Shown here piece by piece: positions 1,497 through 54,400 of a stretch of DNA of 64,000 bases. The DNA comes from Chloroflexaceae bacterium (GTDB taxonomy: Bacteria > Chloroflexota > Chloroflexia > Chloroflexales > Chloroflexaceae): positions 56,516-120,515 of the forward strand of contig DAOTVB010000015.1 in NCBI GenBank assembly GCA_034436755.1. The letters are read 5' to 3'. The position numbers and the translations under genes were made by a program. A model generated the notes under the pieces. It did no database searches and had not been told where the DNA came from. It saw only the letters and a list, made by a program, of their open reading frames with translations. Numbering within the stretch: position 1 is the stretch's first letter; the number at the start of each line of letters is the position of its first letter.

Positions 1497-1903
1497 AAGA
1501 AATACAGCCGTAGGAGGCATGCTATCCACCGTTCGGCTGTATTCCAGCAGCCGTAGCCGTAGCCGTAGGGTGCATTGTATGCACCGTTCTGCTATATTCC
1601 AGCGGTAGGGTGCATGCTATCCACCGTTCGGCTATATTCCAGCAGCCGTAGCCGTAGTAGCCGTAGGGTGCATTGTATGCACCGTTCTGCTGTATTCCAG
1701 CAGCCGTAGTAGGGTGCATTGTATGCACCGTTCTGCTGTATTCCAGCAGCCGTAGCCGTAGGGTGCATTGTATGCACCGTTCTGCTGTATTCCAGCAGCC
1801 GTAGCCGTAGTAGCCGTAGGATGCATGCTATTCACCGTTCTGCTGTATTCCAGCAGCCGTAGGGGGCATGCTATCCACCGTTCGGCTGTATCCAGAAGAA
1901 GGT
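1497..1903. repeat. Complex tandem minisatellite: about 8 units of 38-60 bp, each with two short hairpins, interspersed with (CCGTAG)n / TAG hexamer runs
   Basis: Direct reading. The unit is gggtgcattgtatgcaccgttctgctgtattccagcag. A variant unit reads ggcatgctatccaccgttcggctgtattccagcag. Units are separated by 1-3 copies of ccgtag. Confidence 0.9.
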
Positions 1904-5671: not shown

Positions 5672-5885
5672 GCGTACTCCTTTATTTACACGCGTTACGC
5701 GGTTGCTCACCCAAAAGAAAATGTCGCCTCCGGCAGGGCGGAAGCAAACAGATCTTTTGCACAAAAAAGTTCACAACGTGAATTTTTTTGTGCAAAAGAA
5801 AAAAGCGTCCCATGCTGCCGCAGGCAAATCAGGCTTCCATCGGGTCAAACGTCCGGGTTGCATGTCAACCGCGTAACTCGTGTTA
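5672..5885. repeat. Modular palindromic intergenic repeat element, copy 1, inverted orientation; central hairpin 5759-5793
   Basis: Contains cgcctccggcagggcgg, the T-run/perfect-hairpin/A-run core gcacaaaaaagttcacaacgtgaatttttttgtgc, catgctgccgcaggc and ccgcgtaactcgtgt. Confidence 0.85.
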
Positions 5886-8650: not shown

Positions 8651-8735
8651 GACAGGACTTACGCGGTGCGCATTCACACGGGACATTTCACCCGATGGCA
8701 GCACGGTACGCACTCCTCCGCCGGGCAACGATCCC
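8651..8735. repeat. Degenerate, hairpin-less copy of the modular repeat element
   Basis: Contains gacaggacttacgcggtg, then gatggcagcacggtacgcactcctccgccgggc. These match modules of full copies (cf. 36440 and 23948). Confidence 0.5.
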
Positions 8736-9198
8736 CACTTGTGCGACAACCATGGCGCTCTCGCAGCAACAATCTTGCCGATAAAGGTAAGTGAGTGGCT
8801 TGCTGCCGCAGGCGCAACGCGTCGTACATTCTGATATTGATTGTCCCGATTATATAGCGAACAGCGCACAAAGCAACCGAGCGCAAACCCGCACGATCGG
8901 TCTCTGTCCGGTACCGGGTTGTGCTCTATCCGGTGAACCTCTGTTCTTGCTATCGTCCAGAATTCGCGCGGGCCATGCACCATGCTATAATGCCCGCATC
9001 CTGAATGAAAGTTGGGGAGTGTGCTGTTTCTTTCAGGTATAAGCAATTTTGCCGGAGCGCATGGGCATGCCATCCGGCGTTCGGGTCTGGCACGAGACAG
9101 GAACAGTCCACACCACGTAAGTCGTGTTATTGAGAATGGCCCTGATGTTCCATTTGTAGCGCAAACCAGAATCTACGGATAAGAGGAGTTACGACACT

Positions 9199-22699: not shown

Positions 22700-23863
22700 C
22701 TACAGGCTAATATCCTGCATAGCAGCGGCAGCCACACGCTTCCCGACAGCCGCCGTTACCGCAGCCAGGCGGGGCATCAGCGCGGCGAAGTTTTCCAGCG
22801 TCAGCGACTGCCCGCCGTCGCTACGCGCACGATCCGGATCGGGATGCACCTCGATGGCAAGCCCATCAGCGCCGGCAGCCAGTGCGGCCAGCGCCAGCGG
22901 TTGCACCAGGTACCACTTGCCGGTGCCGTGGCTGGGGTCGGCAATAACCGGCAGATGTGAGCGGCGCTTCGCCAGCGCCACGGCGTTGAGGTCCATGGTG
23001 TTGCGCGTGGCCGTCTCGAAGGTACGAATCCCACGCTCGCACAGAATGACATTCGGATTGCCCTGGGCAACAATATATTCGGCACTCAGTAGCCACTCGT
23101 CGAAGGTCGCCGACATCCCCCGCTTGAGCAGCACGGGTTTCCCGGTGCGCCCAACCTCCTCCAGCAGTTGATAGTTCTGCATATTGCGCGCACCGATCTG
23201 CAGCAGGTCGGCATACTGCGCAACCAGATCAACATCGGTCGGGGTCATCACCTCGGTGACAACCGGCAGGCCCGTCTCTGCGCGCGCCTGGGCCAGCAAC
23301 TGCAACCCCAGCTTGCCCAATCCGCGGAAGGTGTAGGGCGAGGAGCGCGGTTTGAACGCGCCACCGCGCAGCATGGTTGCCCCGGCTTCGCGCACGGCGT
23401 AGGCGGTGGTCATCATCTGCGCTTCGCTCTCGACGGCACATGGCCCGGCGATGACCACACAATCGCCGCCGCCAACTTTGATACCGGATACATCAACAAT
23501 GGTGTCGTGGGGATGCATTTCGCGCCCGGTAAGTTTGTAGGGCCGCGTCACCCGCATCGTCTCCTGCACACCGGGGAAGCGCTCCATGTCTTCCCGCAGG
23601 GCCGGCGGGATGAATGCACCGATGACCCCGACGATCATGCGCTCCTCGCCATGAATAATATGGCCCTTCAAATCATGTTCCTGTAACCGTTCAAGTACGG
23701 TGTCGATGTTCTCCTGCGTGGCGCTGCTGCGCATAATGACGATCATTGCGTTATCTTCCTCTCCTGATGATATAACTTCTGCGACTGGTCGAACGGCATA
23801 TGCCACACGCGGCGCGCCGGGCCGCAGCGTCGGCGTGGCCTGGGGCGGGGCAACGGTTGCCAT
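22700..23863 (-). CDS. 3-deoxy-7-phosphoheptulonate (DAHP) synthase, type I-beta with N-terminal regulatory domain
   Basis: The catalytic core ([24 protein letters not shown]) is preceded by an ACT/FL-like N-terminal domain. The ATG at 23863 has a GGAGG RBS. The track start at 23962 lies inside the repeat element (artifactual MLPQA). Confidence 0.83.
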
Positions 23864-23879
23864 AACAGTAATCTCCTCC

Positions 23880-24110
23880 ACCGTATATAACGCGAAGTAC
23901 GCGGTGGGTCTGCAAACTGGGCGTTTGCGCCCGGTAATGGCCCGATTCGCCTGCGGCAGCATGGTACGCTCTTTTCTTTTTCACAAAAAAATTCACAACG
24001 TGAATTTTTTTGTGAAAAAGAATGATATCTTCCGCCCTGCCGGAGGCGGAATCTCCTGTCGGGTCAACAACCGCGTAAGTCGTGTAAATAACGCGAGTTA
24101 CGCGGTGGGT
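23880..24110. repeat. Modular palindromic repeat element, copy 3, forward orientation; hairpin 23979-24015
   Basis: Contains cgcctgcggcagcatggtac, the core ttcacaaaaaaattcacaacgtgaatttttttgtgaa and the 3' arm cttccgccctgccggaggcggaatctcctgtcgggtcaac...ccgcgtaagtcgtgtaaat. Confidence 0.9.
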
Positions 24111-24345
24111 CCACAAACTGGACATTTGCCCAGGTGGAAGCCCGATTCGCCTGCGGCAGCATGGTACATTTTGAACTTTTTTCACAAAAAATTTGCACTG
24201 TGTGCAAATTTTTTGTGAAAAAAGAATGATATCTTCCGCCCTGCCGGAGGCGGAATCCCCTGTCGGGTCAACGACCGCGTAAGTCGTGTAAATAACGCGA
24301 GTTACGCGGTGAGCGTACACATCAGACGTGTACTTCCACAACGGC
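24111..24345. repeat. Modular palindromic repeat element, copy 4, tandem to copy 3; hairpin 24181-24218
   Basis: Same flanks as copy 3. The hairpin ttcacaaaaaatttgcactgtgtgcaaattttttgtgaa differs in its inner stem by a compensated change. Confidence 0.9.
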
Positions 24346-24400
24346 CGGCTTCGCCTGCGGCAGCATAGTTCGGTCTTTACGGCAAAGAAAAACCCCCAGC

Positions 24401-24811
24401 TTACGACTGAGAGTCCGGTGATTGCATGGTAAATGCGGTCATCTGCGCACGTTCGGGACGCAGATTGCGCGCGTCCCGGATGTAGACATGCACCAACTCA
24501 TCGGCGCGGCGGGTGGTGTTCCAATGAATAAGCACCCGGATACAGCCCTGCAAACTACCCGGCACATTCATCTCGTGCCCGCAGAGCAGTGCGGTATCCA
24601 GCCAACCCAACTCACGCGCGGCAACGGCGGGAAACTCGGCATTGAGGTCGGGAGTAGTGGTGAAGATCGCGCTGGCGATATCCTCCGGCCGCAGATCGTT
24701 AGCCGCGATAAGCTCCTGGAGCATCTCGCGGGTCGCCTCCAGGATGGCTTCGCGTGTATTCTCGGTTGCGGTGGTTGCGCCACGAATACCGCGACACCAG
24801 ACGGTTGTCAT
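24401..24811 (-). CDS. aroH: Monofunctional chorismate mutase, AroH class
   Basis: [24 protein letters not shown] is a canonical AroH N-terminus. AAGGAG RBS; 136 aa. Confidence 0.75.
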
Positions 24812-25098
24812 AGCAGTCTTCTCCTTTATCGATCTTGAGCTGGTACGAGACAAACAGAAAGGGCGTGGAAGCTGCTGCTCCACGCCCTGTCGTTTATCTG
24901 TCTACTATCTTAGATCTTACGCAACGCGAAGCACCCAGTCCTTATGTTGGCCGGTAAAATAAAAGAAGTAGAAAAAGCTGTTGATCAGATATACCATGGG
25001 CCTTTTCGTCCTCTACCGCTTCGCGCTAAATGCCATCCGACTATAGCACACAACCACACGTACGTCAAGCGGATATGCGGGATCGGATGCGCCGTATC

Positions 25099-26142
25099 TC
25101 AGAAGAACACCTTCACCAGCCGGAGCGCGCCCTGCTTCCAGGGGACACGGTGCGAGACACCGGAACTCTGCTCGAATTTCGCCAGATTATCCAGGTACCA
25201 CTGGTAGTTCCGGATCAAGGCATCCTTGTTTGAAAACTTGGGATCATATCCAAGCACGCGTTCGGCCTTCTCGATGGAGACAAACGAGTCTTTGGAAACT
25301 GTCTCGTAGACCCACTTGTAGAGCGGGGAGAGATGAAAGAACTCGAGCACGCGCAGGGCCATGATCATCGGGCCGGCCGGGAAGGTGCGGATCTGCTTGC
25401 CATGACCGGCATAATCTAACACGGCCTGGAAATCCTCTTTGACGGTGGAAAACTCGCGGGCCCCGATGTTAAAGGTATCGTTGACCTTCGCCTTGTCGCC
25501 CTGCGCAACCAGGTAGATCGCCTCGCAGAGATCTTCGACATCGAGATACTGGTAGCGGTTGTTGCCGCTCCCCAGCACGGGGAAGCTCTTGCCATCCTTG
25601 GCCCAGTCGTAGAGCAGCGCAAAGACACCCAGGCGCTCCGGGCCAATAAACGATTTCGGGCGCAGAATGGGGATGCACATTCCTTTCTGGCGATACTCAA
25701 GGCAGGCTTCCTCGGCCTGGATCTTGGCTTCACCGTAGGGACCAACCCCACTCATTTTGTCGGTTTCGTACAGGGGATGATGATCAGGGATGCCATACAC
25801 GGCGGTGGTGGAGATATGGATCAGCCGGTCCACGCCATGGTGATAGGCCACGTCGATCACGTTGCGCGTGCCGGTGACCTCCGTGGAGTAGATATCTTCT
25901 TTTTTGTAGAGCGGTAACGCCGCCGCCGTATGCACCACAATGTCGATGTTCTCCATTGCCCGATCAACCGTCTGGCGGTCACGGACATCGCCCTTGATGA
26001 TTGTCACCTTATCGACAACATCGGGATAATCAAAATCGGCGATATCAAGCGAGGTAACGGCGTGCCCCTTGTCGAGGAGAAACCGGACCAGGTTGATCCC
26101 CAGGAACCCCGCGCCACCAGTAATTAAATATCGTTGTGACAT
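25099..26142 (-). CDS. NAD-dependent epimerase/dehydratase (SDR, extended family)
   Basis: GGAGFLG Rossmann motif at the N-terminus; YxxxK-containing core; 347 aa. Confidence 0.85.
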   Translation of the reverse strand: MSQRYLITGGAGFLGINLVRFLLDKGHAVTSLDIADFDYPDVVDKVTIIKGDVRDRQTVDRAMENIDIVVHTAAALPLYKKEDIYSTEVTGTRNVIDVAYHHGVDRLIHISTTAVYGIPDHHPLYETDKMSGVGPYGEAKIQAEEACLEYRQKGMCIPILRPKSFIGPERLGVFALLYDWAKDGKSFPVLGSGNNRYQYLDVEDLCEAIYLVAQGDKAKVNDTFNIGAREFSTVKEDFQAVLDYAGHGKQIRTFPAGPMIMALRVLEFFHLSPLYKWVYETVSKDSFVSIEKAERVLGYDPKFSNKDALIRNYQWYLDNLAKFEQSSGVSHRVPWKQGALRLVKVFF

Positions 26143-26514
26143 AACCTTTACCTTCTCCTGATTTTCTACTCTGTCGCCGGCATAGGCTGTGCTACGCTTT
26201 GCAGGACGCGTCTGGATCGTCCTGTTCGTAGTATAACGAATTGTAGCGACACGATTATAACCGGGGTTGCGATTATATTGAGTAACTGATATGGGATGTG
26301 ACGTAAAGTTCTGCGCCGGCCCGTAGGGGCGAAAGATTTTTCGCCCTTACCCGTCCTGGGAAGCGCATACCGGAGGCATGCAGACCGGGTACACCAGAAC
26401 CGTGTGCAGAAACATACGTCACACCCCTGTAACTGATAGCGCTTGACAGCCGGACAGAAAAAATGTACCCTCTATCTTTGTTACTGTTATTCTGCAAAGC
26501 GACCCTGGTTCAGT

Positions 26515-36439: not shown

Positions 36440-36665
36440 TAATGAACAGGACTTACGCGGTCAGTTCCAAATCCGGCATGTGCCTGAATAAACGGCCCGA
36501 CTCGCCTCCGGCAGGGCGGAATAGAACATTCTTTTTCCGGAACATGTGGCACGGTGTGTCACATGTTCCGGAAAAAGACAGAAAAGTACCACGCTGCCGC
36601 AGGCGAAATACACCATTATCGGGAGCAAACGACCCGTTTGAATGCCCACCGCGCGCGTCGTGTAA
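36440..36665. repeat. Modular palindromic repeat element, copy 5, inverted orientation; hairpin 36535-36572 of entirely different sequence
   Basis: Contains aacaggacttacgcggtcagttccaaatccggc, cgcctccggcagggcgg, the core ttccggaacatgtggcacggtgtgtcacatgttccggaa between ttttt and aaaaa, and gtaccacgctgccgcaggcg. Confidence 0.85.
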
Positions 36666-37253: not shown

Positions 37254-37600
37254 TGATCGATGCCTCCAAACATCAATAAGCCCCTTGTCGCGCCGGTTCT
37301 ATGGGCGGCAAGGGGCAACCATGCACCAGATTCAGACATCGTAGCTTACAGGCCAGTATACCTGGTTGCTGCGGCGACAACAAGAGCCACAATATACAAA
37401 GTCACACCAGCGGCACTTGTGCAGGAGAATGGAGGAGTGGTGACATACAGATGTTATGCATTGCCCTGTGGACGGAGCTTTGCGCCTCCGGCAAGACGGA
37501 AGATTCCATAATAGAGCAACCCTCCATTGGTCGTATGCCGCCTTCAGGCGGTTGAGAGCGAATCCCGCAGAATTAGTTCACAACCAATGGAGGATTGTTA

Positions 37601-37822
37601 TATACAGGATTTACGCGGTCGGTTCCAAATCAGGCATCTACCTGGACAACCGGCCCGATTCGCCTCCGGCAGGGTGGAAGCCAACAGATCTTTTTCACAG
37701 AAAAATTCACGTTGTAAATTTTTCTGTGAAAAAGATAAAGAAGTACCATGCTGCCGCAGGCGAAGCTGCCGTTCACCGGGTGAAACGTCCGGTTTGATGA
37801 ACCACCGCATAACTCGTGTAGT
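37601..37822. repeat. Modular palindromic repeat element, copy 6, inverted orientation; hairpin 37694-37730
   Basis: Contains acaggatttacgcggtcggttccaaatcaggc, cgcctccggcagggtgg, the core ttcacagaaaaattcacgttgtaaatttttctgtgaa and gtaccatgctgccgcaggcg. Confidence 0.85.
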
Positions 37823-39722: not shown

Positions 39723-39765
39723 GGGGTTACGGGTTACGGGTTACGGGTTACGGGTTACGGGTTGG
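39723..39765. repeat. (GGGTTAC)5-6 heptanucleotide microsatellite, telomere-like and G-quadruplex-capable
   Basis: Direct reading: ggggttac gggttac gggttac gggttac gggttac gggttgg. It lies in the divergent intergenic region between the Yip1-B and rph starts. Confidence 0.95.
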
Positions 39766-39799: not shown

Positions 39800-39920
39800 T
39801 GCACAGGAGTTACGTGGTGCGGCCTATTCTGGCCTGGTGACAACCCTGAACGCCGGCTGCGCCTGCGGCAGGATGGTACTCTTTTTCTGCCACCCTGCCG
39901 GCGGCGAAAAGCACTCGCTC
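39800..39920. repeat. Degenerate copy of the repeat element lacking the large hairpin
   Basis: Contains cacaggagttacgtggtg ... cgcctgcggcaggatggtactctttttctgccaccctgccggcggcgaaaag. Confidence 0.5.
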
Positions 39921-39971
39921 GGGGAGAACCACGCAACTCGTATCGGTCACGAACACTATGTAGAGGAGCGA

Positions 39972-42160: not shown

Positions 42161-42345
42161 ATTTTATAACTTTTCACCGTCACCCGCCTTACCTGGTCGG
42201 TTCCAAACGGGGCGTTTCACCCGGTGAACGGCAGCAGCGCCTGCGGCAGCATGGTACACTTTGTATTCTTTTTCAAGAAAATTCACAATGTGAATTTTCT
42301 TGAAAAAGATCGGGGTTTTGCTACCCTGACGGAGGCGAAATCTCC
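42161..42345. repeat. Repeat element copy 8; hairpin 42272-42304
   Basis: cgcctgcggcagcatggtac, then ttcaagaaaattcacaatgtgaattttcttgaa, then ctgacggaggcgaaatctcctgccgggttgatgaccgcg. Confidence 0.85.
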
Positions 42346-42560
42346 TGCCGGGTTGATGACCGCGCAACACCTGTTACAGTTACCCGCCTTACGCAGTGGG
42401 CATTCAAATCAGGCAGTTGCCTCTATGAACGGCACGATTCGCCTGCGGCAGCATGGTACTTGATTTATCTTTCTCACAAAAATGTTGCACTTTATGCAAC
42501 ATTTTTGTGAGAAAGACGGTCCTCTTTCACCCTGCCGGAGGCACTGTCCACTGACAAACA
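42346..42560. repeat. Repeat element copy 9; hairpin 42472-42512
   Basis: cgcctgcggcagcatggtac, then tctcacaaaaatgttgcactttatgcaacatttttgtgaga, then caccctgccggaggcac. Confidence 0.85.
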
Positions 42561-42860
42561 CAAGATCGCGTAACGCACATCAGCACGGGTCGTTTCGCGT
42601 TTTTCGCTCATTTCGCGGCGTTCGTGGTCCAAACTTTCACCGCGCAACGCCTGTTACAGTTACCCGCCTTACGCGGTGGTTCATCAAACGGGGCGTTTCA
42701 CCCGGTGAACGGCAGAAGCACCTGCTGCCGCAGGTACTTGATCTATACTTTTGCAGCAATGTTGCGCCTTACGCAACATTGCTGCAAAAGGTTGGAAATC
42801 CGCTTGCGTCGTGTTGCAGCTTACACGATTTCGTGTTATTCTATTGTTACGTTACCGTGT
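42561..42860. repeat. Repeat element copy 10 plus an accessory module; hairpin 42749-42789
   Basis: The accessory module gtttcgcgtttttcgctcatttcgcggcgttcgtggtccaaa is also present at 48085-48135. Core: ttttgcagcaatgttgcgccttacgcaacattgctgcaaaa. Confidence 0.8.
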
Positions 42861-43827: not shown

Positions 43828-44278
43828 CACCATCGTTCTGTATCGTTTTGTTTTGTTTTTTCTACATATAAATCATCAGCATTACGACAAGTCATAGTAG
43901 ATAAGCAGGTACTTTTCTCCTATTGACGTTAACGACCAGGGGTAGTACGCTGTCAGATGTATGCAAACTGAGATCAACTACCGTGTAGCATCAGCAGGCA
44001 TCATTCTACCTTCACTTCTCCCCTGCCTGTAGGCCTTTCTGCCAATACCCGTATCGATCAGTCGGATCGATCAGATCGATCAGGCCGACCAGTCCGACGA
44101 AGACCAGTATCAACCAGCATTGCTTTGATCAGTAGCCGGGCGGAACGCCCACCGCGTAACTCCTGGCCGGTTCGGTTGACCACACCCATCAGGCCCCTTG
44201 TGCTAACGTGCAGCGCGGGGGTGGATCGGTTTTTGCATGAAACAACAACGCATGCCGATTTAGACGAAGGAGGTTCGT

Positions 44279-45427: not shown

Positions 45428-45469
45428 GGTTAGGGGCAATACTTTTCAAATAGCAGAACCTGTGCGGTA

Positions 45470-45640
45470 GCATGACAAACCGGGTGGTTGCTCCGATACA
45501 GAACGGTTCCGCCTGCCGCAGCATGGTACGTTTTTATCTTGTTTCACAAAAAATTTTTCACAAAGTGAAAAATTTTTTGTGAAACAAGGATGATTTCTTC
45601 CACCCTGCCGGAGGCGGTATCCTCTTCCAGGTAAGGAATC
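45470..45640. repeat. Repeat element copy 11, inverted; hairpin 45541-45585
   Basis: ccgcctgccgcagcatggtac, then gtttcacaaaaaatttttcacaaagtgaaaaattttttgtgaaac, then ccaccctgccggaggcgg. Confidence 0.85.
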
Positions 45641-45976
45641 ACATAAGCCCGGTTATTTGAAAGATATTGAGGTTAGGGGACAGGGGACAGGTCATAGGGG
45701 ATAGCTCTCAGGTGTCGGCTTTTTGTGGTAGGGACGCACAGAAACGCGTCCGCCGCCCGTCCTGGTGCGGAACATGGTTTCGGGAGCGGCAGTCTCTGTT
45801 GGTCTCGCCAACCGCATTCCAAGCAAAACACATCTGGCGCATCGTTATCGACCAGACAATTTGTTCTTTGTCCTTTGTTTGTTTGTTCTTTCGCTAAATC
45901 GCTCTTCCATGTGGGCCGCTTCATGCTATAATACCCTGCTGGAGATGAAGGTTGTGTAGATGAAAGAGGGATTAGC

Positions 45977-47659: not shown

Positions 47660-47880
47660 GCCATTTGTCATTTGACAGGAGTTACGCGGTTGAGATCCAA
47701 ACCGGACGTTTGAACCGATGGAAGTCTGTTTCGCCTGCGGCAGCATGGTACATTTTGATCTTTTTTCACAAAAAATTTGCACAAAGTGCAAATTTTTTGT
47801 GAAAAAAGATGGTTTCTTCCGCCCTGCCGGAGGCGGAATCTCCTGTCGGGTCAACGACCGCGTAAGTCGTGTCAAATGAC
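47660..47880. repeat. Repeat element copy 12; hairpin 47765-47803; the 3' module contains a perfect 17-bp palindrome
   Basis: cgcctgcggcagcatggtac, then ttcacaaaaaatttgcacaaagtgcaaattttttgtgaa, then cttccgccctgccggaggcggaatctcctgtcgggtcaacgaccgcgtaagtcgtgtcaaatgacacgacttacgcgg. Confidence 0.9.
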
Positions 47881-48150
47881 ACGACTTACGCGGTCGGCAT
47901 GCAAACCGGGCGTTTGATCCGATGAACACCCGCTTCGCCTGCGGCAGCATGGTACTTGATCTTTCTTTTTCACGAAATGTTAGCTCGAAGAGCCAACATT
48001 TCGTGAAAAAGAAATGATATCTTCCGCCCTGCCGGAGGCGATAACCCCCGCCAAACGCGGGATCGTCTTATACCTATCAGCACTGGCCGTTTCGCGTTCT
48101 TCGCTCATTTCGCGTTGTTCGTGGTCCAAATCCCCACCGCGTAACTCGTG
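47881..48150. repeat. Repeat element copy 13 plus an accessory module; hairpin 47969-48007
   Basis: cgcctgcggcagcatggtac, then ttcacgaaatgttagctcgaagagccaacatttcgtgaa, then cttccgccctgccggaggcg, then gtttcgcgttcttcgctcatttcgcgttgttcgtggtccaaa. Confidence 0.85.
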
Positions 48151-48166
48151 TCACTCACGGGGGCAT

Positions 48167-48239: not shown

Positions 48240-50732
48240 TTATTTCTTGCGCCGGACCCAGCCGCGTTTAGGCTCCTCAACGCTCTGGCGCAATTTCGCC
48301 AGATCATTCTGGATCTCGTCCGGCTCCGGTTCCGGTTCACGCTCGGGCGGTTCCTGCGGCTGGCGCGGCTCCTCCTGCGCCGCCAGATCGCTCAATGAGA
48401 TCCGTTTGCCCGTCTGCACCTTTTCCGCACCCGTGGTCGTCTCGGCTGTCGGTTCGGGCAGATCCACCGGCCGGGGCGAGGGCGGTTGCTCCTCCTGCGC
48501 CGCCAGGTCACTCAGCGAGATCCGTTTGCCCGGTTTGATCTTTTCCGCACCCGTGGTCGTCTCGGCTGTCGGTTCGGGCAGATCCACCGGCTGGGGGGGG
48601 GATGGTTGCTCCGGTTGCTCCTCCTGCGCCGCCAGGTCACTCAGCGAGATCCGTTTGCCCGGCTTAAAGCGGGTGGTTTCGGGCGTCTCTGCGGCCGCGG
48701 GCGGTTCCTCCAGCATCGGGGCGAAGGGCTGATCCGCCGGGAGCATTTCCGCACCAGGCTGCTCCGGCAGCGGCGGCATAGCCGGCTCGGGTTGCGCCGG
48801 TTCAACCGGTTCAGCCACCGGCGCGCCCGCCTGACCATTAACCGACCGCAGTGCTGCCGGCCGCGCCACACCCACCTGTTCATCTACCACGGGGGCGGAG
48901 ATGACCGCATCAACATAGGGACTGGGAGCCTGCGCCGCACCCAGCGCGACTAACCACGCCCAGATCTGTGCGCAACGCTGCGTGGCATCCTCCGGCAGGC
49001 GCAGCGGTCGCCCGCGCGCATCGATGACCACACCCAGCGCGCTCCCCTTGATGGCGGCAATATCGGTCTGAACTTCTTCCCCCGGTTCATTCTGCCCGAT
49101 CCGCACATTGGCCGCCGGTCGCAGGGTTAACTGCCCGCTGCTGCTCTGATCCAGCCGCAGACGGGCAATCTGCCCATGCCGCACCGTTACCCGCCGCGAC
49201 TTGCCGCGCCGGGAAGTCAACTCGGCCTCAACCGCGACCTCACCGGGCTTGCCCTCCCCCAGCGGTACCACGCAGGTTGCCAGCGGCACATTACGCAGCA
49301 GATCACGTTCAAAGAGCGTCACCGCCGCATCGGGATTGAGTTTTGCCAGCACCCCACAGGCCGGCAAGAGCCCCAGGATATCGAGATGCAGATCGAGCGC
49401 CAGCAGACTCTCCCCAGTGGTCGGCTGGAGGACATCCAGCAACATCAACGCCGCCATACCGGGATGCGGCGCATGCGCCAGCACCCCGCCACCCGCGATC
49501 ACCAGATCATAGTCCAGGTCAGGATCTTCATCGGTGAGGGTTTCCAGCAGGAGTGCCAGCACCTCGCGGGTTATGGCCTGTTCGATAAACACATCTTCGC
49601 GGCTGGCGGGCAACATCTGCGGGCGCAACAGCTTATTCAGCAGCCAGTGCGTCAGGTCGGCCTCGCTGATGGGGAAGGGCAGCCAGCGGGCAATATTGGC
49701 CACACCGCGCGCTTTGAGCAGGTTGGTAATGCCATACGCGGTGCCACATGCGCCCAGGATCGATAGGGTATAACTGCCGGGGCCGGCGTGGAAGGCGCTG
49801 CTGCCGGCCGCGCCGACATCCAGCGTTAACACCTTGCGGCTATTCCGCTCGGCGATAAAGCGGGTCATCAGCCCGGACATACTACAGACCGTTGTCACCG
49901 GCACATGACACATGCGACGCAACGTCGGGAGACCGGGCAGACGGGTGAGGACGCGCTCGTCGTACAGACGACTCAGCGCCTCGCGGGCGGGCTCGAGCCG
50001 CTCCTGCGTCAGCGATGGTCGCACATTATCTACCACCAGCGTCTCGGCCCGCCCAGAGAGCGCCTCGACAACCTGATCGCGGGCATCGCTGTTGCCGGCA
50101 TAGATCACCGGACGGGCCATCAGGTTCTGGCTTTGCTGGCCGCTGGCATCAACCGAGGTACGCAGCGCGGTTAACCCCACGATATGCGCCAGACGGTGCA
50201 GCGCATCGGTTGCGCCACCCTCAAGCCCCCCCGCAATAAAGACGGCATCCGGCTCCAGGGAGAGCATCGCCTGGATCTGCCGCACAATCCAGGAAGCGCC
50301 GCCGCCACTGGAGCGCATCATGGCATCATCAAGCGTAATCACCTGCAGAATGCTGGTGTAGGTGCTGCGACAGGCATGCAGCGCACTCCGGGCCGAGACA
50401 TCGCTGGCAATTGCCGTCACCACCAGCGCCAGCGTGCCGGTCGCACTGGTGACACAGATCAGCCGGTCAACGCCGTCACGCTCGTTATTCTGCGGCATCA
50501 GCAGTTGACCTTCGCGCAGCAGTTGCCGCCCGATAGTCTCGCTGATCTGCGCGGCGGCTTCCAGGATGCCGAACAGGGCATTCTGGTGTGGCGGCTCCAG
50601 GCTGCTCGGCACCTCGGCCCGACCAATCATGCGGTGCTCGCCATCAACCGTATCAACCAGCGTGACACGCGTGATCAGGCTGCCAATTTCGGCAATAAGG
50701 ATCGAATCAGGTGGTGGTGGTGTATCAGGCAT
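48240..50732 (-). CDS. GlmL/MutL-type (PF13941-like) actin-fold ATPase domain protein with C-terminal 3x tandem ~38-aa repeats and a basic tail
   Basis: The N-terminal ILIAEIGSLITRVTLVD phosphate-1-like motif is followed by an about 600-aa actin-fold-like region. The C-terminus carries PVDLPEPTAETTTGAEKIKPGKRISLSDLAAQEEQP x3 and ends ...KRGWVRRKK. The family assignment rests on pattern memory. Confidence 0.55.
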   Translation of the reverse strand: MPDTPPPPDSILIAEIGSLITRVTLVDTVDGEHRMIGRAEVPSSLEPPHQNALFGILEAAAQISETIGRQLLREGQLLMPQNNERDGVDRLICVTSATGTLALVVTAIASDVSARSALHACRSTYTSILQVITLDDAMMRSSGGGASWIVRQIQAMLSLEPDAVFIAGGLEGGATDALHRLAHIVGLTALRTSVDASGQQSQNLMARPVIYAGNSDARDQVVEALSGRAETLVVDNVRPSLTQERLEPAREALSRLYDERVLTRLPGLPTLRRMCHVPVTTVCSMSGLMTRFIAERNSRKVLTLDVGAAGSSAFHAGPGSYTLSILGACGTAYGITNLLKARGVANIARWLPFPISEADLTHWLLNKLLRPQMLPASREDVFIEQAITREVLALLLETLTDEDPDLDYDLVIAGGGVLAHAPHPGMAALMLLDVLQPTTGESLLALDLHLDILGLLPACGVLAKLNPDAAVTLFERDLLRNVPLATCVVPLGEGKPGEVAVEAELTSRRGKSRRVTVRHGQIARLRLDQSSSGQLTLRPAANVRIGQNEPGEEVQTDIAAIKGSALGVVIDARGRPLRLPEDATQRCAQIWAWLVALGAAQAPSPYVDAVISAPVVDEQVGVARPAALRSVNGQAGAPVAEPVEPAQPEPAMPPLPEQPGAEMLPADQPFAPMLEEPPAAAETPETTRFKPGKRISLSDLAAQEEQPEQPSPPQPVDLPEPTAETTTGAEKIKPGKRISLSDLAAQEEQPPSPRPVDLPEPTAETTTGAEKVQTGKRISLSDLAAQEEPRQPQEPPEREPEPEPDEIQNDLAKLRQSVEEPKRGWVRRKK

Positions 50733-50810: not shown

Positions 50811-51461
50811 TCAAAAGGTCCAGGTCACCAGAAACTCGAGACGCTCACTCAGCGCCGCCAGGTAGGTGCGCAACGCCCCGGCCAGAAAGAAGCCCAGTGC
50901 AACCATCAGGAGCCAGTAGCCGACATGGGCACTGCCCGCCACCAGCCGCCCCAGACCCGTATCGCGCCGCACCGTAAAGTAGAAGTAGCTCAACGTCAGG
51001 ATCACGCCTATAGCCAGCACCGCCGTGCCGATAAGCTGCGGCAGGGTGTTTCCGGCTGGTTGCACCGTATCGATCCACTGCGGGTAGAGCGTCCCCACCA
51101 GCACGCCACCCAGCGCCAGAGCCGCGCCGACCCCAAAGAGCAGCGCCAGGGGAATATTTGCCAGCCAGGAGAAGCCCTGCCGCCCGGTAATCCGGGGCAG
51201 CAGCAGCAGACCCAGGATAAACGGCACGAGCGTGAGGTAGAGATCGAGACTCTGCGGGTTCTCCGCCCCCAGCAAGACTTGAACGACCGCCGGCCAGAGC
51301 ACCTGATGGTAGAGCACCACAAAGGCATAGCCCAGCGACACCCCGATAAACAGGTATTGCGCCAGCCGGAACAGCGGATTATTTTCCGCCCAGACGATCC
51401 GGCTGAACACAAACAGGGTCAGCACAACGCCAACAATTTTGACTACAAGCGCCGTCGCCAT
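50811..51461 (-). CDS. Polytopic integral membrane protein, ~6 TM, unknown function
   Basis: 216 aa, almost entirely hydrophobic helices. Its start overlaps the upstream giant gene stop by 1 nt (TAATG). Confidence 0.5.
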   Translation of the reverse strand: MATALVVKIVGVVLTLFVFSRIVWAENNPLFRLAQYLFIGVSLGYAFVVLYHQVLWPAVVQVLLGAENPQSLDLYLTLVPFILGLLLLPRITGRQGFSWLANIPLALLFGVGAALALGGVLVGTLYPQWIDTVQPAGNTLPQLIGTAVLAIGVILTLSYFYFTVRRDTGLGRLVAGSAHVGYWLLMVALGFFLAGALRTYLAALSERLEFLVTWTF

Positions 51462-54400
51462 TACTCCTCGCTCTCCGGGTGCAGCTTCGGCTTCGGCTGG
51501 AGCAGCAGGCCGGCAATGCCCCCGACGATAATCAGGACCACAAAGACCAGCGCGGCGAAATGCTGCAATCCACTGGAGCGAATAGCCGCCACATCATCCA
51601 CACCGCCGCCACTGGCCGCCGCATAATTTAGCGCGCCCTGCCGCCCGACCAGTTGGTAGACATTCGGGTAGCGCAGGTAGGGTTGCACCACCGGCGCGGT
51701 CTCAAACGGCAGCAGGAAGGCCATCGGCACGTCGGGGGTGCTGGTATGCACCTGCTCAATCCAGCCCTGCACATCCTGCGGCTGATCGGCCATAATCAGG
51801 ATCAGATCAAAGTCGGCAACCGTTTCCAGTTGAGTCTGTTCGACCATCCAGCTTCTGGTAGCATCCGCACCCGAGAATGTTCTGAATGACTCGGTAAAAT
51901 TCTGCTGAACCAGACGGCGCAGGGCAAACTCGCCTCCCGGCTGGTAGCCCATCAGCACATAGTCCCGCCCCCCCAGGTCTGCGGTGCGCTGCTCGTCGGT
52001 ATTGTAGCCGGCGGCGCGCAGGGGATCACGAAAGTTGAAGGAGAGCAGTGTGCCCTGCGGATCGGTGCTGAGCACCACAAAGCGCACATTCTGCTCAATC
52101 AGATGCTGCGTAACGGCGGTCTCGAGCGGACGCAGTTCGCTGCTGCGCTGGGCATCCCACTCGTAGGCCACCAGCACAACATCCTCCTCCGAAAGCCCGG
52201 CGACAATGCTGGACAACTCACCGGCAGCGGGGGCCGCCGGATTGGCACTTCCCAGAAACCCTGTTACGGACGGAACAAACAGCCCAATCAGCAGCGCCAG
52301 TGCCAGCAACAGGTAGAGGACGCGCTCCAGACCAACCCGCCGCCAGCGCGCCGGTTCGGCGGGTGCCGGCGTGAGGGTCGTCTCCGGAAATGGTCGGGCC
52401 ACCAGGCGTTGCAGCAGCGCGGCCGCTTCCATCTGGGCCGGGCTGCGCGTGAAGGTTGGCCGGGGCAGCACGGTTGGTGAGGTGGTAGTTGCCACGACTG
52501 GTCCTTCGGCCTCTTCTTCGCCCACACCCAGGTTCGACAGCCAGTCTACCTGCTGCGACTCTTTGGTGCTGACGCGGGGCTCCGGTTCGGTGGGCCGCAA
52601 CCACTCCGGCAGATCCGCTCCACCCAGGAAGCTGCTGCCCTCATCAGCGGTACCGCGTGGTTGCACCGCAGCGGGAGCGGGGGCCTGCGCTACCGGCTCC
52701 TCCCGCAACCAGTCCGGAACATCCTCCTCCGACCCTTCATCCTGCAGCCAGGACGGCAGTGCGTCATCAACCGGCTCTGCGCCGGATGGTGCCGGTGGCG
52801 GCGGGGGTGCGGACGAGCGCGGCGGGAGTGCCGGCTCTTCTAACTCGGTATCGGCACCCTGCAACCAGGAGGGCAGCCCGCCGGTCTGGTCCGCCAGGGG
52901 ATCGTTGGACTCGTCGGTCATCCAGGGCGGCAGATCGCTGCTATCGGTTGTGTCGGTTGTGTCGCTGCCGGCAGCCGGAGGTGCGCTCTCGCCACCAGTC
53001 AGCCAGGCAGGGATATCTTCGGCTCCGGTATCCGCCGGCCCAGCCGGTTCCGCCGTTGCTGCGTCATCACGCAACCAGTCGGGAACATCCGCATCCGGGG
53101 CCGCCGGCGCAGACGGTGGGGCCGCCGACCCGGTATCCGCCGGTCCAGCCGGTTCCGCCGTTGCCGCGTCATCACGCAACCAGTCGGGAACATCCACATC
53201 CGGGGCTGCCGGCGCAGACGGTGGGGCTGCCGACCCGGCATCTCGCAGCCAGTCCGGCTCTTCGGCTTCCGGCAGTGCCTCGGCTGTCGGCGCAGACGGT
53301 GCATCGGCGGATAGCCAGTCAGGCAACTCCTCTTTCTCGACCACATCGGGCATGCGGGGCGGTTCCGCGTCCGACTCCGCGCTCACATCAGCCCGCAGCC
53401 AACTGGGCAAATCTTCCTGGGAGGCTGCCGCACCGGTTGAACCTACATTATCCGCCAGCCAGTCAGGGAGTTCCGTTTCGGCAGCCGCGTCTGCTGGCGC
53501 GGGTGTATCGGCCTCTGACACGGATGGCGGTTCATCTATCGACTGCAACCAGTCAGGCATTGCCCCGGCGTCCGCCATCGCGCCGCCCTCTTCGGGTGGC
53601 GCAGCCTCATCACTCTCGGGCATGGGGGGTGGTTCATCAACGCCCCGCAGCCAACTGGGTATCGCGGCATCTTCCGGCGCGGTTGGGGCTGCGGGCACCT
53701 CGGACTGAGGAGACCAGTCCGGCGTACTGCCGGCTTCGGTCGGCGACTCATCTGCGGAAGCACCACTCAGCCAGGAGGGCATCTCCGGCTCGCTGCCCGA
53801 CGCGGCGGGCTGGTCAAACCAGTTGGTCGTATCCCCCGCTCCGGTTGATGGATCTTCAGGAGTCGCGCCACTCAGCCAGGCGGGCATTTCCGGCGCACCA
53901 CCCGGCTCGCTGCCCGACGCGGCGGGCTGGTCAAACCAGTTGGTCGTATCCCCCGCTCCGGTTGATGGATCTTCAGAAGTCGCGCCACTCAGCCAGGCGG
54001 GCATCTCCGGTTCGCCGCCCGACGCGGTGGGCGCGGTAGTTTCCGGCGGTGCCCCCGGTTCACCCTGGAACCAGTCGGGGATACCGGTTTCTGTGACACC
54101 GGGGGGTTGCTCCGGCGACTGCAACCAGTCCGGCGACTCAGCCGATGATGGTGGTGCTGCCGGCATATCCAAACCAGTTTCGGCAATATCGCGGGAGACT
54201 TCATCGGGCGAGATATCGCGCAGCCAGTCGGGGATACCGGGCTCATCGCCGGCAGGGGATGCGGACGGCGTATCCGCCGGTGCTGCCTCTGCAAACCAGT
54301 CCGGCGACTCTGCGGCCCCAGGTGGCGTGGTGGGAGATCCACCTTCCGTCGCCGCAATATCGCGGGCCATCTCGTCCGGCGAAATATCGCGCAGCCAGTC

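Follow-up and report, generated by a model that had tools for sequence, protein, structure and literature searches.

A probable non-autonomous DNA transposon family with a variable central palindrome in an uncultured Chloroflexaceae lineage

The repeat array located in the spacer between the chorismate mutase gene and the DAHP synthase gene (CM-DAHPS) of a Chloroflexaceae contig is built of copies of a short element whose ends are terminal inverted repeats (TIRs) flanked by a target-site duplication (TSD), a point missed by an earlier note on this DNA. On the basis of these two features we identify the element, with a probability of roughly 85%, as a non-autonomous DNA transposon (MITE) of an uncultured Chloroflexaceae lineage, mobilized by the mechanism proposed below. 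Short non-coding units, TIRs, a TSD of fixed length, many dispersed copies and insertion polymorphism were all looked for and found. A MITE is in itself an ordinary, known kind of element; the family is new and present in high copy number. The most unusual thing about it is how its central palindrome behaves, not its nested fold.

Organization of the array and distribution of the family

The array was analyzed together with its relatives in the window (the whole stretch of 64,000 nucleotides) and in related genomes. It had been described as two tandem copies of a unit of about 230 bp at 23880-24345. TRF (23883-24311; period 204, 2.1 copies, 86% matches, score 640) and a repeat search, which recovered the direct and inverted repeats described for this region, found it in place, and its full extent is 23884-24378: two full units are indeed present, but they are followed by a truncated third unit of the ~197-bp element that runs past the noted end. 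The full units measure 194-197 bp and not 230 bp, and with a 7-bp duplication they give the period of 204. The module order is as it had been read: terminal motif, small hairpin, TTCGCCTGCGGCAGCATGGTAC, T-run, perfect palindrome, A-run, TTCCGCCCTGCCGGAGGCGGAAT, terminal motif. The inverted repeat ccgcgtaagtcg / cgagttacgcgg exists, but it is formed by the right TIR of one unit abutting the left TIR of the next across the 7-bp TSD. "Archetype" proved a loose term, as units 1 and 2 are genuine family members but their terminal repeat is of a minority type (CGCGAG in place of CASGAG). Unit 3 is devoid of the palindrome, module e and the right TIR.

Table 1 Features of the CM-DAHPS array and other family members in the window
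Feature	Position	Strand	Basis or remark
Probable true DAHP synthase start	23861-23879	-	ATG 23863-23861, SD GGAGGAG 23879-23873; relatives
Outer TSD copy TATATAA	23884-23890		one mismatch to TAAATAA; sequence read and 7-bp TSD rule
Unit 1, full MITE copy	23891-24084	+	nhmmer E 7.7e-55
Unit 1, left TIR	23891-23905
Unit 1, module c	23946-23967
Unit 1, palindrome arms	23974-23996 / 24000-24022		loop AAC; 23-nt arms, 100% complementary
Unit 1, module e	24030-24052
Unit 1, right TIR	24070-24084
TSD copy TAAATAA, junction of units 1 and 2	24085-24091		sequence and TSD analysis
Unit 2, full MITE copy	24092-24288	+	nhmmer E 2.1e-58
Unit 2, left TIR	24092-24106
Unit 2, module c	24146-24167
Unit 2, palindrome arms	24176-24198 / 24202-24224		loop TGT; perfect
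Unit 2, module e	24234-24256
Unit 2, right TIR	24274-24288
TSD copy TAAATAA, junction of unit 2 and truncated unit 3	24289-24295		sequence and TSD analysis
Unit 3, left half only	24296-24378	+	nhmmer model positions 3-84, E 3e-15
Unit 3, left TIR	24296-24310		followed by a variant small hairpin
Unit 3, module c	24350-24371		2 mismatches
Terminator-like hairpin and T-run	24390-24416	-	overlaps chorismate mutase stop codon; terminator scan and relatives
Full unit	5688-5883	-	nhmmer E 1.2e-53
Degenerate family member	8652-8856		nhmmer
Unit of ~218-bp class	36446-36663	-	nhmmer; ortholog in L026
Right-end fragment	37447-37509	-	nhmmer; model positions 134-197
Full unit	37604-37819	-	nhmmer
Unit with central palindrome lost	39803-39942	+	nhmmer; modules c and e nearly adjacent
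Array of two units and a partial third	42185-42797	+	nhmmer; 42185-42374, 42385-42654, 42662-42797
End fragment only	44120-44165	-	weak match, E 0.002; terminal repeat and start of small hairpin, model positions 2-48
Unit with degenerate ends	45461-45650	+	nhmmer
Two-unit array	47675-48151	+	nhmmer; 47675-47872 (197-bp class), 47879-48151 (273-bp class)

The outer TSD copy lies 4 nt upstream of the Shine-Dalgarno sequence of DAHP synthase (- strand), and at the other side the terminator-like hairpin belongs to host sequence outside the element, conserved also in the element-free relatives. The array now has the chorismate mutase terminator on one side and the DAHP synthase ribosome-binding site on the other, and because it separates the two it may affect expression of the aromatic amino-acid pathway. 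The DAHP synthase start MLPQA.. at 23962 is an artefact, as had been suspected: the ORF extension runs into unit 1, and in relatives the protein begins either at MATVA.. (window 23863, with the SD GGAGGAG) or at MIVIM.. (23746, the start of the Pfam FXD domain). ORFs crossing the units are in general chance extensions of neighbouring genes, in accord with the view that no CDS is associated with the element.

The proposal that the repeat represents a dispersed and modular intergenic family was borne out. The core 22-mer has 12 matches in the window (0.00 expected) and occurs, among the matches listed, in at least 90 loci of five related MAGs (F17_50, F17_55, SRR4030105_bin.95, Roseiflexaceae SMAG_U9509 and Anaerolineae F14_29), so that copies are found throughout the window and in related genomes and not at this locus only. 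By nhmmer the window contains 13 full or partial units and three fragments, and the family takes up about 4-5% of the window. Units range from 141 to 310 bp, mostly 195-200, 216-219 or 271-274 bp, and these size classes (~197, ~218 and ~273 bp) carry alternative right-arm modules. None of the units lies inside a gene (0/170); their intergenic contexts resemble background, and with respect to flanking transcription 35 are in sense and 45 in antisense orientation, which means no bias.

Termini, target duplication and formation of arrays

The TIRs of 15-16 bp (5'-CASGASTTACGCGGT...ACCGCGTAASTCSTG-3') comprise 14 positions, each conserved at 89-100% in 117 units, and two S (G/C) positions; these two polymorphic positions show no left/right covariation, as expected for two protein-bound ends. 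In a first test perfect 5-mers flanked 29 of 77 single units and none of 308 shifted control positions. This 5-bp estimate was then revised: whenever the "first base" of the element was not A, the identical host base followed the right repeat (6/6 cases), and the duplication is therefore 7 bp long. Over 135 units 42 duplications match at 7/7 and 26 at 6/7 positions (shifted controls: 0 and 1 of 540), and only about half of the units have a TSD that is perfect or nearly so. The consensus of the TSD is TNANTNA and the target is palindromic and AT-rich; at sites without a neighbouring copy (n=25) T at -1 occurs in 23/25, A at 2 in 19/25, T at 4 in 24/25 and A at +1 in 21/25.

We propose that a transposase provided in trans cuts with a 7-bp stagger and binds the terminal repeats, and perhaps the strongly conserved subterminal modules c and e as well. 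Its family and chemistry are deduced from the TSD alone since no autonomous element has been found in the sampled sequence. The 642 kb of window and sampled loci contained no autonomous element or transposase with the same ends; neither TIR pairs 0.33-5 kb apart nor a generic search for inverted repeats with duplications in this sample provided a candidate. Clustering of 480 predicted proteins for multi-copy families revealed no candidate transposase family; the sizes of the large clusters (16, 12 and 7 members) and the identification of one member by Pfam as an ANTAR response regulator suggest ordinary regulator or kinase families. Far-apart c-to-e pairs were traced to double hairpins or nested foreign MITEs. 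A scan of viral contigs with the TIR gave 10 isolated chance matches and no partner, and a metagenome scan for module c without the following T-run gave 10 loci and no transposase; one metagenome locus, which resembled a TIR-bounded element of 1.25 kb, encodes no evident transposase, its 266-aa ORF resembling by eye a protein of the endonuclease/exonuclease/phosphatase type. The family provides a target (TNANTNA, with a 7-bp duplication) and ends (CASGASTTACGCGGT) for a transposase still to be found. Copies of the family break short-read assemblies and create false ORF extensions such as the MLPQA start, and a family model would improve gene calls and binning in this Chloroflexaceae clade.

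Presence/absence and unit-type differences were observed among genomes ~92-96% identical. No unit occupies the CM-DAHPS spacer in L094, L095/96 and L097/98, whereas the close relative L092 has there the same truncated unit as the window and a full unit that belongs to another subtype and is flanked by the same 5-mer. A possible excision footprint, TCAGTTg-c-TCAGTTA, is seen in L092. The genomes with empty sites are less closely related, and the array of the window starts with a truncated unit; a clean filled/empty pair with a single precise junction was not recovered among the loci compared. The array of the window probably arrived after the split from the empty-spacer relatives, judging from this comparison. 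Orthologous arrays differ in copy number (e.g. 4 versus 2 units), and L026 has an extra hairpin-less unit at the site orthologous to 36446-36663.

The arrays are products of separate insertions into the duplicated target. Tandem duplication as their general origin was ruled out, adjacent units being as different as random ones (similarity 0.66 versus 0.64, p 0.40) while junction 5-mers are common to neighbours. Special targeting of resident ends is unneeded because about half of the intergenic TNANTNA sites are already element-flanking copies. Every insertion would duplicate its own target and leave ready-made targets beside resident copies, in selectively safe places, so that independent insertions would pile up into arrays such as 23884-24378. 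The family illustrates how mixed arrays can form through target duplication alone.

Fold of the unit and evolution of the central palindrome

The whole unit was claimed to fold into one nested stem-loop, and it does so in prediction both as DNA (-62 kcal/mol, z -9.7) and as RNA (-98.5 kcal/mol, z -9.9), with 0/200 shuffles folding as well in either case; the T-run and A-run pair with each other as the outer stem. The central hairpin is AT-rich, with arms of 22-25 bp (typically 23 bp) and usually a 3-nt loop (115/152 units). The full-length c-to-e segment (58-70 nt) is kept in 152 of 170 units, at least 17 of the 20 loop-proximal positions are paired in 148 of these 152 and the stem is perfect in 110, whereas about 10% of units have lost the palindrome. 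Watson-Crick pairs account for 97.9% of 3020, a share somewhat inflated by centring the hairpins for maximal pairing; the mismatches (17 G.T, 22 A.C and 25 other) reveal neither an excess of G.U nor strand asymmetry.

Nineteen of the 20 palindrome pairs have changed on both sides (458 cells), which 0/500 shuffles reach. In 50 closely related pairs of units, which are not independent of one another, 108 compensated double changes were counted versus 31 single changes, and the loops were identical in 21, exact reverse complements in 21 and otherwise different in 8. Loop triplets occur family-wide as reverse-complement pairs; the orthologous copies L036 and L066 have the loops GAA and TTC, respectively, and the palindromes of 36446-36663 and its ortholog in L026 differ by two exactly compensated pairs. 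The stem changes at 14% per position, the flanking arms at 6.3%. We conclude that the hairpin evolves as DNA, not RNA, by homogenisation of the arms, in which changes would pass from one arm to the other, and by inversion of the loop at a high rate. The likeliest origin of this behaviour is short-range template switching at the replication fork (quasipalindrome correction), since switching of templates between short inverted repeats makes the arms alike and reverses the spacer between them (PMC8604942; PMC8794818). Similar patterns could also result from selection for pairing or from ectopic gene conversion among copies. Its persistence in the different subfamilies hints that the hairpin may also help the element to propagate.

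Three other readings of the units themselves were considered. Genes or cis-elements of a useful structured RNA (a small RNA, a transcript-stabilising or RNase III target hairpin, a bidirectional terminator) would account for a predicted fold that is very stable on both strands, for the massive covariation in the central stem and for the location of units between genes, with which they should often be co-transcribed. Such a role is nevertheless highly improbable, given units in both orientations without preference, G.U pairs no more frequent than A.C (17 vs 22 of 3020), loops in both orientations, and TSDs and insertion polymorphism that show mobility. Within the units the scan of the locus detected neither a promoter-like site nor a stem with a T-run after it; intrinsic terminators were dismissed, the units having no G+C-rich stem with a T-run and the sole site being the host terminator at 24390-24416. 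Rfam gave no match in the window at the gathering score, in keeping with the earlier note, and at a permissive threshold only generic (miRNA-precursor) hairpins, the best with 29.8 bits versus a gathering score of 41. Slightly less probable still are REP/BIME- or REPIN-type elements spread by a REP-associated tyrosine transposase (RAYT), which are likewise high-copy, extragenic and palindromic and form BIME-like arrays with units in either orientation. REPs are 20-40 bp long, leave no duplication on insertion and are tied to a Y1 transposase gene (PMC2817692), whereas here units of ~197 bp have TIRs in place of 20-40-bp palindromes with a GTAG or CGTC head, and are flanked by a 7-bp TSD; a phmmer search of the six-frame translated 642 kb for a Y1/RAYT-like ORF gave no match at E <= 10, a weak test with two probe sequences on a partial sample. 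A local tandem duplication confined to this locus has next to no probability. Units 1 and 2, with 85% identity, are the most similar adjacent pair seen, but the core 22-mer recurs at other places in the window and at 90 or more loci of other genomes, adjacent units in general are no more alike than random ones, and in the relative L092 this site holds a unit of another subtype.

A further alternative concerns the hairpin alone and is compatible with the MITE reading: the hairpin or cruciform may itself be needed, for joining the ends in transposition, for binding or bending around a host protein or for acting on transcripts, and selection would then keep the palindrome perfect and favour the compensated changes. 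Long perfect palindromes are normally deletion-prone, and yet the palindrome is lost in so few units and well paired in nearly all full-length segments; arm length, loop size and the T-run/A-run outer ends are constant, and the hairpin is kept even in a shorter Roseiflexaceae variant without some other modules. Deleterious intermediates should, however, slow down the stems, which change at least as fast as the flanking arms diverge, G.U and G.T pairs are not tolerated on either strand, and the loop flips as often as it stays, as predicted by template switching or conversion and not by selection for pairing. We regard selection as possible but the less likely cause. We give about half as much probability to the palindrome being a working part of the transposon recognised by its shape alone, as in a structure-dependent fold-back MITE; for example, a hairpin or cruciform extruded at replication might fold the unit back and juxtapose the terminal repeats for the transposase, and would be rebuilt, with a loop flip, in each cycle of transposition or replication. 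If true, this would be a type of fold-back MITE not described in bacteria, and its hundreds of copies would report, as a natural array, on hairpin extrusion and template switching in vivo.

Comparison with known systems

A literature search for a described Chloroflexi MITE or Chloroflexi-1 RNA motif found no match. Bacterial MITEs such as Correia of Neisseria, RUP of Streptococcus pneumoniae and Nezha of cyanobacteria are likewise short, non-coding and intergenic, and share with the new family TIRs, TSD, hundreds of copies, fold-back structure and differences in copy number and presence/absence between close relatives. Correia and RUP elements duplicate TA, and we can name no MITE family that matches the terminal repeat CASGASTTACGCGGT and the 7-bp TNANTNA target. 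To our knowledge a palindrome conserved in structure and hypervariable in sequence, with a flip-flop of the loop, has not been described as a MITE feature. The new family also differs from bacterial MITEs (reviewed in PMC3184786) in that no cognate IS was found in the sampled sequence.

Interchangeable modules, complementary ends, arrays and either orientation are also features of BOX (Streptococcus pneumoniae) and BIMEs (enterobacteria). We know of no regular target-site duplication at BOX or BIME units; in the new family the modules lie inside a TIR-bounded transposon and the arrays are built up by separate insertions at duplicated targets. REP/REPIN elements with RAYT are extragenic palindromic repeats too, with hairpins kept paired by correlated changes (PMC2817692).

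Integron attC sites resemble the units in being conserved in structure, not sequence, and in having a variable palindromic centre. The attC sites are imperfect, with extrahelical bases, and flank gene cassettes near an integrase, with RYYYAAC/GTTRRRY cores; the units abut each other or housekeeping genes and their stems are perfect in 110/152 cases, and this identity was rejected. The closest process to that seen in the palindrome is quasipalindrome correction (Ripley model; PMC8604942, PMC8794818), which likewise comprises homogenisation of arms and inversion of a 2-5-nt spacer, with tcc/gga and gaa/ttc loop flips of the same kind as in the new family. It has been described as sporadic at single-copy inverted repeats (PMC8604942, PMC8794818), whereas here it would act on hundreds of paralogous hairpins with 23-bp arms in one genome, and these provide an unusually large natural data set on inverted-repeat homogenisation and spacer inversion.

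Unit architecture and neighbouring genes

The array in the spacer between the chorismate mutase and DAHP synthase genes (CM-DAHPS) is detected as a head-to-tail repeat at 23883-24311 (TRF: period 204, 2.1 copies, 86% matches, score 640). The earlier note had described 23880-24345 as a modular, self-palindromic element, and both the repeat search and reading of the sequence bear this out with two corrections: a unit measures 194-197 bp plus 7 bp (period 204) instead of about 230 bp, and the array reaches 24378 through the truncated unit 3, which is cut off past module c. The proposal that a whole unit can fold into one long nested stem-loop also holds, a single unit reaching -62 kcal/mol (z -9.7) with DNA parameters and the other strand -98.5 kcal/mol (z -9.9) with RNA parameters; none of 200 shuffles folded as well under either set.

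An ORF starting at 23962 (MLPQA..) extends into unit 1. Because relatives start DAHP synthase at MATVA.. (window 23863, preceded by GGAGGAG) or MIVIM.. (23746), both downstream, this start is an artefact of the element, as had been suspected. The outermost repeat copy lies just 4 nt from the Shine-Dalgarno sequence of DAHP synthase. An in-frame 39-codon extension with its own strong Shine-Dalgarno sequence lies upstream of the ferredoxin-like domain (23746-23863, - strand), and its frame stays open in four relatives (L092, L094, L095, L097) despite fast sequence divergence; it may be a real N-terminal extension of the enzyme, or a leader. Other repeats in the window are included in the table.

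Parts of the unit, neighbouring features and sites at compared loci (window coordinates unless a locus is named)
Feature	Position	Strand	Remark
Unit part 1		+	terminal motif ..CGCGAGTTACGCGGT
Unit part 2		+	small hairpin around CAAAC..GTTTG
Unit part 3		+	module c TTCGCCTGCGGCAGCATGGTAC
Unit part 4		+	T-run
Unit part 5		+	perfect palindrome, 23-nt arms, 3-nt loop
Unit part 6		+	A-run
Unit part 7		+	module e TTCCGCCCTGCCGGAGGCGGAAT
Unit part 8		+	short linker
Unit part 9		+	terminal motif as reverse complement
Type I chorismate mutase	24401-24811	-	on one side of the array
Terminator-like hairpin of chorismate mutase	24390-24416		overlaps the stop codon
DAHP synthase		-	on the other side of the array; N-terminal ferredoxin-like domain
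Element-free CM-DAHPS spacer	L094		CM 92% identical
Element-free CM-DAHPS spacer	L095/96		CM 87% identical
Element-free CM-DAHPS spacer	L097/98		CM 88% identical
Units with a tandem pair of unlike central palindromes flanked by modules c and e	L036 2157-2318; L042 1848-2011; L062 6325-6491; L066 1814-1975
Other MITE-like elements	L019 4825-5042; L028 1078-1350; L008 near 4480 and 5000		in or next to central palindromes of units; own terminal repeats (GGGAAGCGGAAG.., TAGCGCGAATAAG..)
Tandem array	1549-1895		periods 40-58 and 153 bp, unit AGCCGTAGGGTGCATGCTATCCACCG..; not related to the MITE
GGGTTAC x5.7	39724-39763		divergent intergenic region, 40 bp upstream of hairpin-less unit 39803-39942
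105-120-bp tandem repeats	48368-48661; 53025-53242; 53785-54010		in the two very long ORFs; probably repeated protein segments
Very long ORFs	48240-50732; 51461-55291	-

Dispersal, insertion and array formation

As the earlier note had supposed, the family is dispersed and not restricted to this locus. The 22-mer of module c, the conserved block left of the central palindrome, has 12 window matches with at most 3 mismatches against 0.00 expected; module e, the block on the right, and the terminal motif show a similar surplus, and a profile built from 63 units recovered 13 full or partial units and 3 fragments, about 3 kb of the 64 kb. Scanning one genome per species for exact matches gave at least 90 loci in other genomes; among the matches listed, nearly all lie in MAGs labelled Chloroflexaceae (F17_50, F17_55, SRR4030105_bin.95), with one locus each in a Roseiflexaceae and an Anaerolineae MAG. 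The window organism and F17_50 share about 92-95% nucleotide identity in their overlapping parts. At the window's density (12 core matches in 64 kb), a genome measuring a few Mb would, on a rough estimate, hold several hundred to about 1000 copies. Two public-run short-read assemblies, L001 (window 24282-26377) and L093 (window 24344-26289), end exactly within element copies, so the family fragments the assemblies of this lineage.

In a shorter variant the terminal repeat is followed directly by module c and the small hairpin is absent (L048 523-690; L109, L115, L117). One copy, from the Roseiflexaceae MAG and read from end to end, is missing module e too and has a perfect central palindrome, and contigs of the JGI metagenome Ga0126311 carry the variant as judged by the spacing from terminal repeat to module c; the family thus extends beyond the Chloroflexaceae.

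None of the 170 units spanning modules c to e in 642 kb (window plus 90 loci) lies within a gene predicted by our home-made codon-usage caller. Between co-directional genes 35 units are sense and 45 antisense, and co-directional, convergent and divergent settings occur in proportions resembling those of the intergenic spaces overall in these sequences. This lack of orientation or context bias makes a strand-specific RNA function unlikely.

Chorismate mutase loci of relatives were retrieved for comparison of the CM-DAHPS spacer. In three lineages the gene pair is conserved and the spacer, of 100-200 bp, is without trace of the element. The closest relative, L092 (96%), carries the truncated unit of the window and, after it, a single full unit that belongs to a different subtype: its right-arm module differs, its palindrome has collapsed, and its flanking 5-mer is the one seen at the two window units. 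The orthologous arrays L059 and L069 have 4 and 2 units, respectively, and L026 has an additional hairpin-less unit relative to window 36.5 kb.

The units are bounded by inverted repeats whose left and right copies share 14 positions conserved in 89-100% of 117 units; two further G/C-polymorphic positions do not covary between the ends. The flanking 5-mers of 77 isolated units were identical in 29 cases and differed by one base in 14; 308 comparisons at shifted positions gave 0 and 5, respectively. Since a near-invariant T precedes the 5-mer and an A follows it in the reconstructed targets, also without a neighbouring copy, and since every unit that begins with a base other than A has that same base in the host sequence past the right-hand repeat (6/6), the duplication is 7 bp, T-N-A-N-T-N-A, and the element proper is 5'-CASGAS...STCSTG-3'. 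Such 7-mers are perfectly duplicated in 42 of 135 units and with one mismatch in 26 (controls: 0 and 1 of 540). A symmetric target duplicated at a fixed length is the hallmark of staggered cleavage by a transposase. The element is moreover small, non-coding and bounded by inverted repeats, and these features combined identify it as a MITE.

A different, 142-bp element occupies window 26290-26431, with ends CAGGGGTGTGACGT...ACGTCACATCCCATA (similar CAGG.. ends) and TCAGTTA on both sides; no second copy was found in the 642-kb sample. The orthologous point of L092 (2300-2540) reads TCAGTTg-c-TCAGTTA, a canonical unit and TCAGTTA. This single case is suggestive of an excision that left a footprint and of a later insertion into that target.

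An array has 2-4 units, which may point the same way or opposite ways, and the 5-mer is usually identical at all junctions. Their origin by tandem duplication is ruled out by the mean global identity of adjacent units, which is no higher than between loci (0.66, n=32, versus 0.64, n=293; p 0.40); adjacent units being as unlike as random ones, the arrays represent separate insertions. One insertion, by duplicating its own target, would leave two targets in place of one. The window holds 22 free intergenic TNANTNA sites and a comparable number of element-flanking copies, which means that roughly half the tolerated insertions should adjoin a resident copy, and with flanking copies so abundant special end-targeting is not needed. 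Units 1 and 2 are the most similar adjacent pair found (85%), and this one pair could conceivably have arisen by duplication.

The central palindrome

Over the 20 loop-proximal positions of 151 distinct units, 2956 of 3020 pairs (97.9%) are Watson-Crick; perfect pairing over 20 bp is seen in 110 of 152 stems, and the loop measures 3 nt in 115. Two-sided changes occur at 19 of the 20 positions (458 cells, two to four pair types each), a level of covariation matched by none of 500 shuffles. The 64 mismatches comprise 17 G.T, 22 A.C and 25 others, and the stems show neither wobble-pair tolerance nor strand asymmetry: the constraint is DNA complementarity, not RNA. Closely related units, defined by flanking arms of at least 90% identity (mean divergence 6.3%), were compared in 50 non-independent pairs. 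Of their 1000 stem positions, 108 carry double changes that compensate exactly, 31 changed on one side only and 1 changed otherwise. The loops were identical in 21 pairs, exact reverse complements in 21 and different in 8. Reverse-complement triplets also coexist family-wide (GGA 14/TCC 6, AAA 13/TTT 10, AAC 10/GTT 9, GAA 7/TTC 5). Orthologous copies from genomes about 92-95% identical follow this pattern too: those at window 36.5 kb and in L026 differ by two compensated pairs, and those of L036 and L066 by a GAA/TTC loop flip and one corrected arm mismatch. Shortened palindromes keep their outer arms symmetrically (for example CTTTTTCC/GGAAAAG in L092, TCTTTTT-tac-AAAAAGA in L002), as expected from centre deletions of a DNA palindrome.

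The stem thus changes at least as fast as its flanks and always in both arms, and the spacer inverts freely, which is not what one would expect if compensatory changes accumulated slowly under selection. Polymerase template switching between the arms of inverted repeats homogenises them and inverts the spacer, including 3-nt flips (PMC8604942; PMC8794818), and the units show arm homogenisation, spacer inversion and 3-nt flips of the same kind. Conversion between copies, which could pair either way round through their palindromic arms, would have the same outcome as template switching and may be responsible instead. Nearly every copy retains one and the same G/G mismatch between modules c and e, which are close to complementary (cgcctGcggcag versus cgcctCcggcag); homogenisation is therefore limited to the central hairpin. 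Modules c and e are probably constrained separately, perhaps as putative subterminal binding sites. The hairpin is kept in about 90% of units with constant arm length and loop size, which suggests that copies able to spread would need it, and it is also kept in the shorter Roseiflexaceae/soil variant.

Standing of the element

The units do not display the defining features of REP/REPIN sequences, intrinsic terminators or attC sites. The Rfam scan gave no match at the gathering score and, below it, only generic hairpin matches far under threshold, in agreement with the initial impression that no known RNA family is involved. Neither a transposase nor a longer element bearing these ends was found in the 642-kb sample, in viral contigs or in a metagenome scan designed to skip MITE copies, and two approximate Y1-transposase probes had no match in the 642-kb sample. 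We know of no IS family with 5'-CA ends and a 7-bp TNANTNA duplication. The element has every testable defining feature of a MITE, an autonomous partner not being among those found.

A literature search found no description of the element. Its specialist interest lies in arrays built via target duplication and in a large set of paralogous hairpins whose arms symmetrise and whose loops flip-flop. In their working the units are like other bacterial MITEs, and their mosaic make-up is reminiscent of BOX elements and BIMEs.
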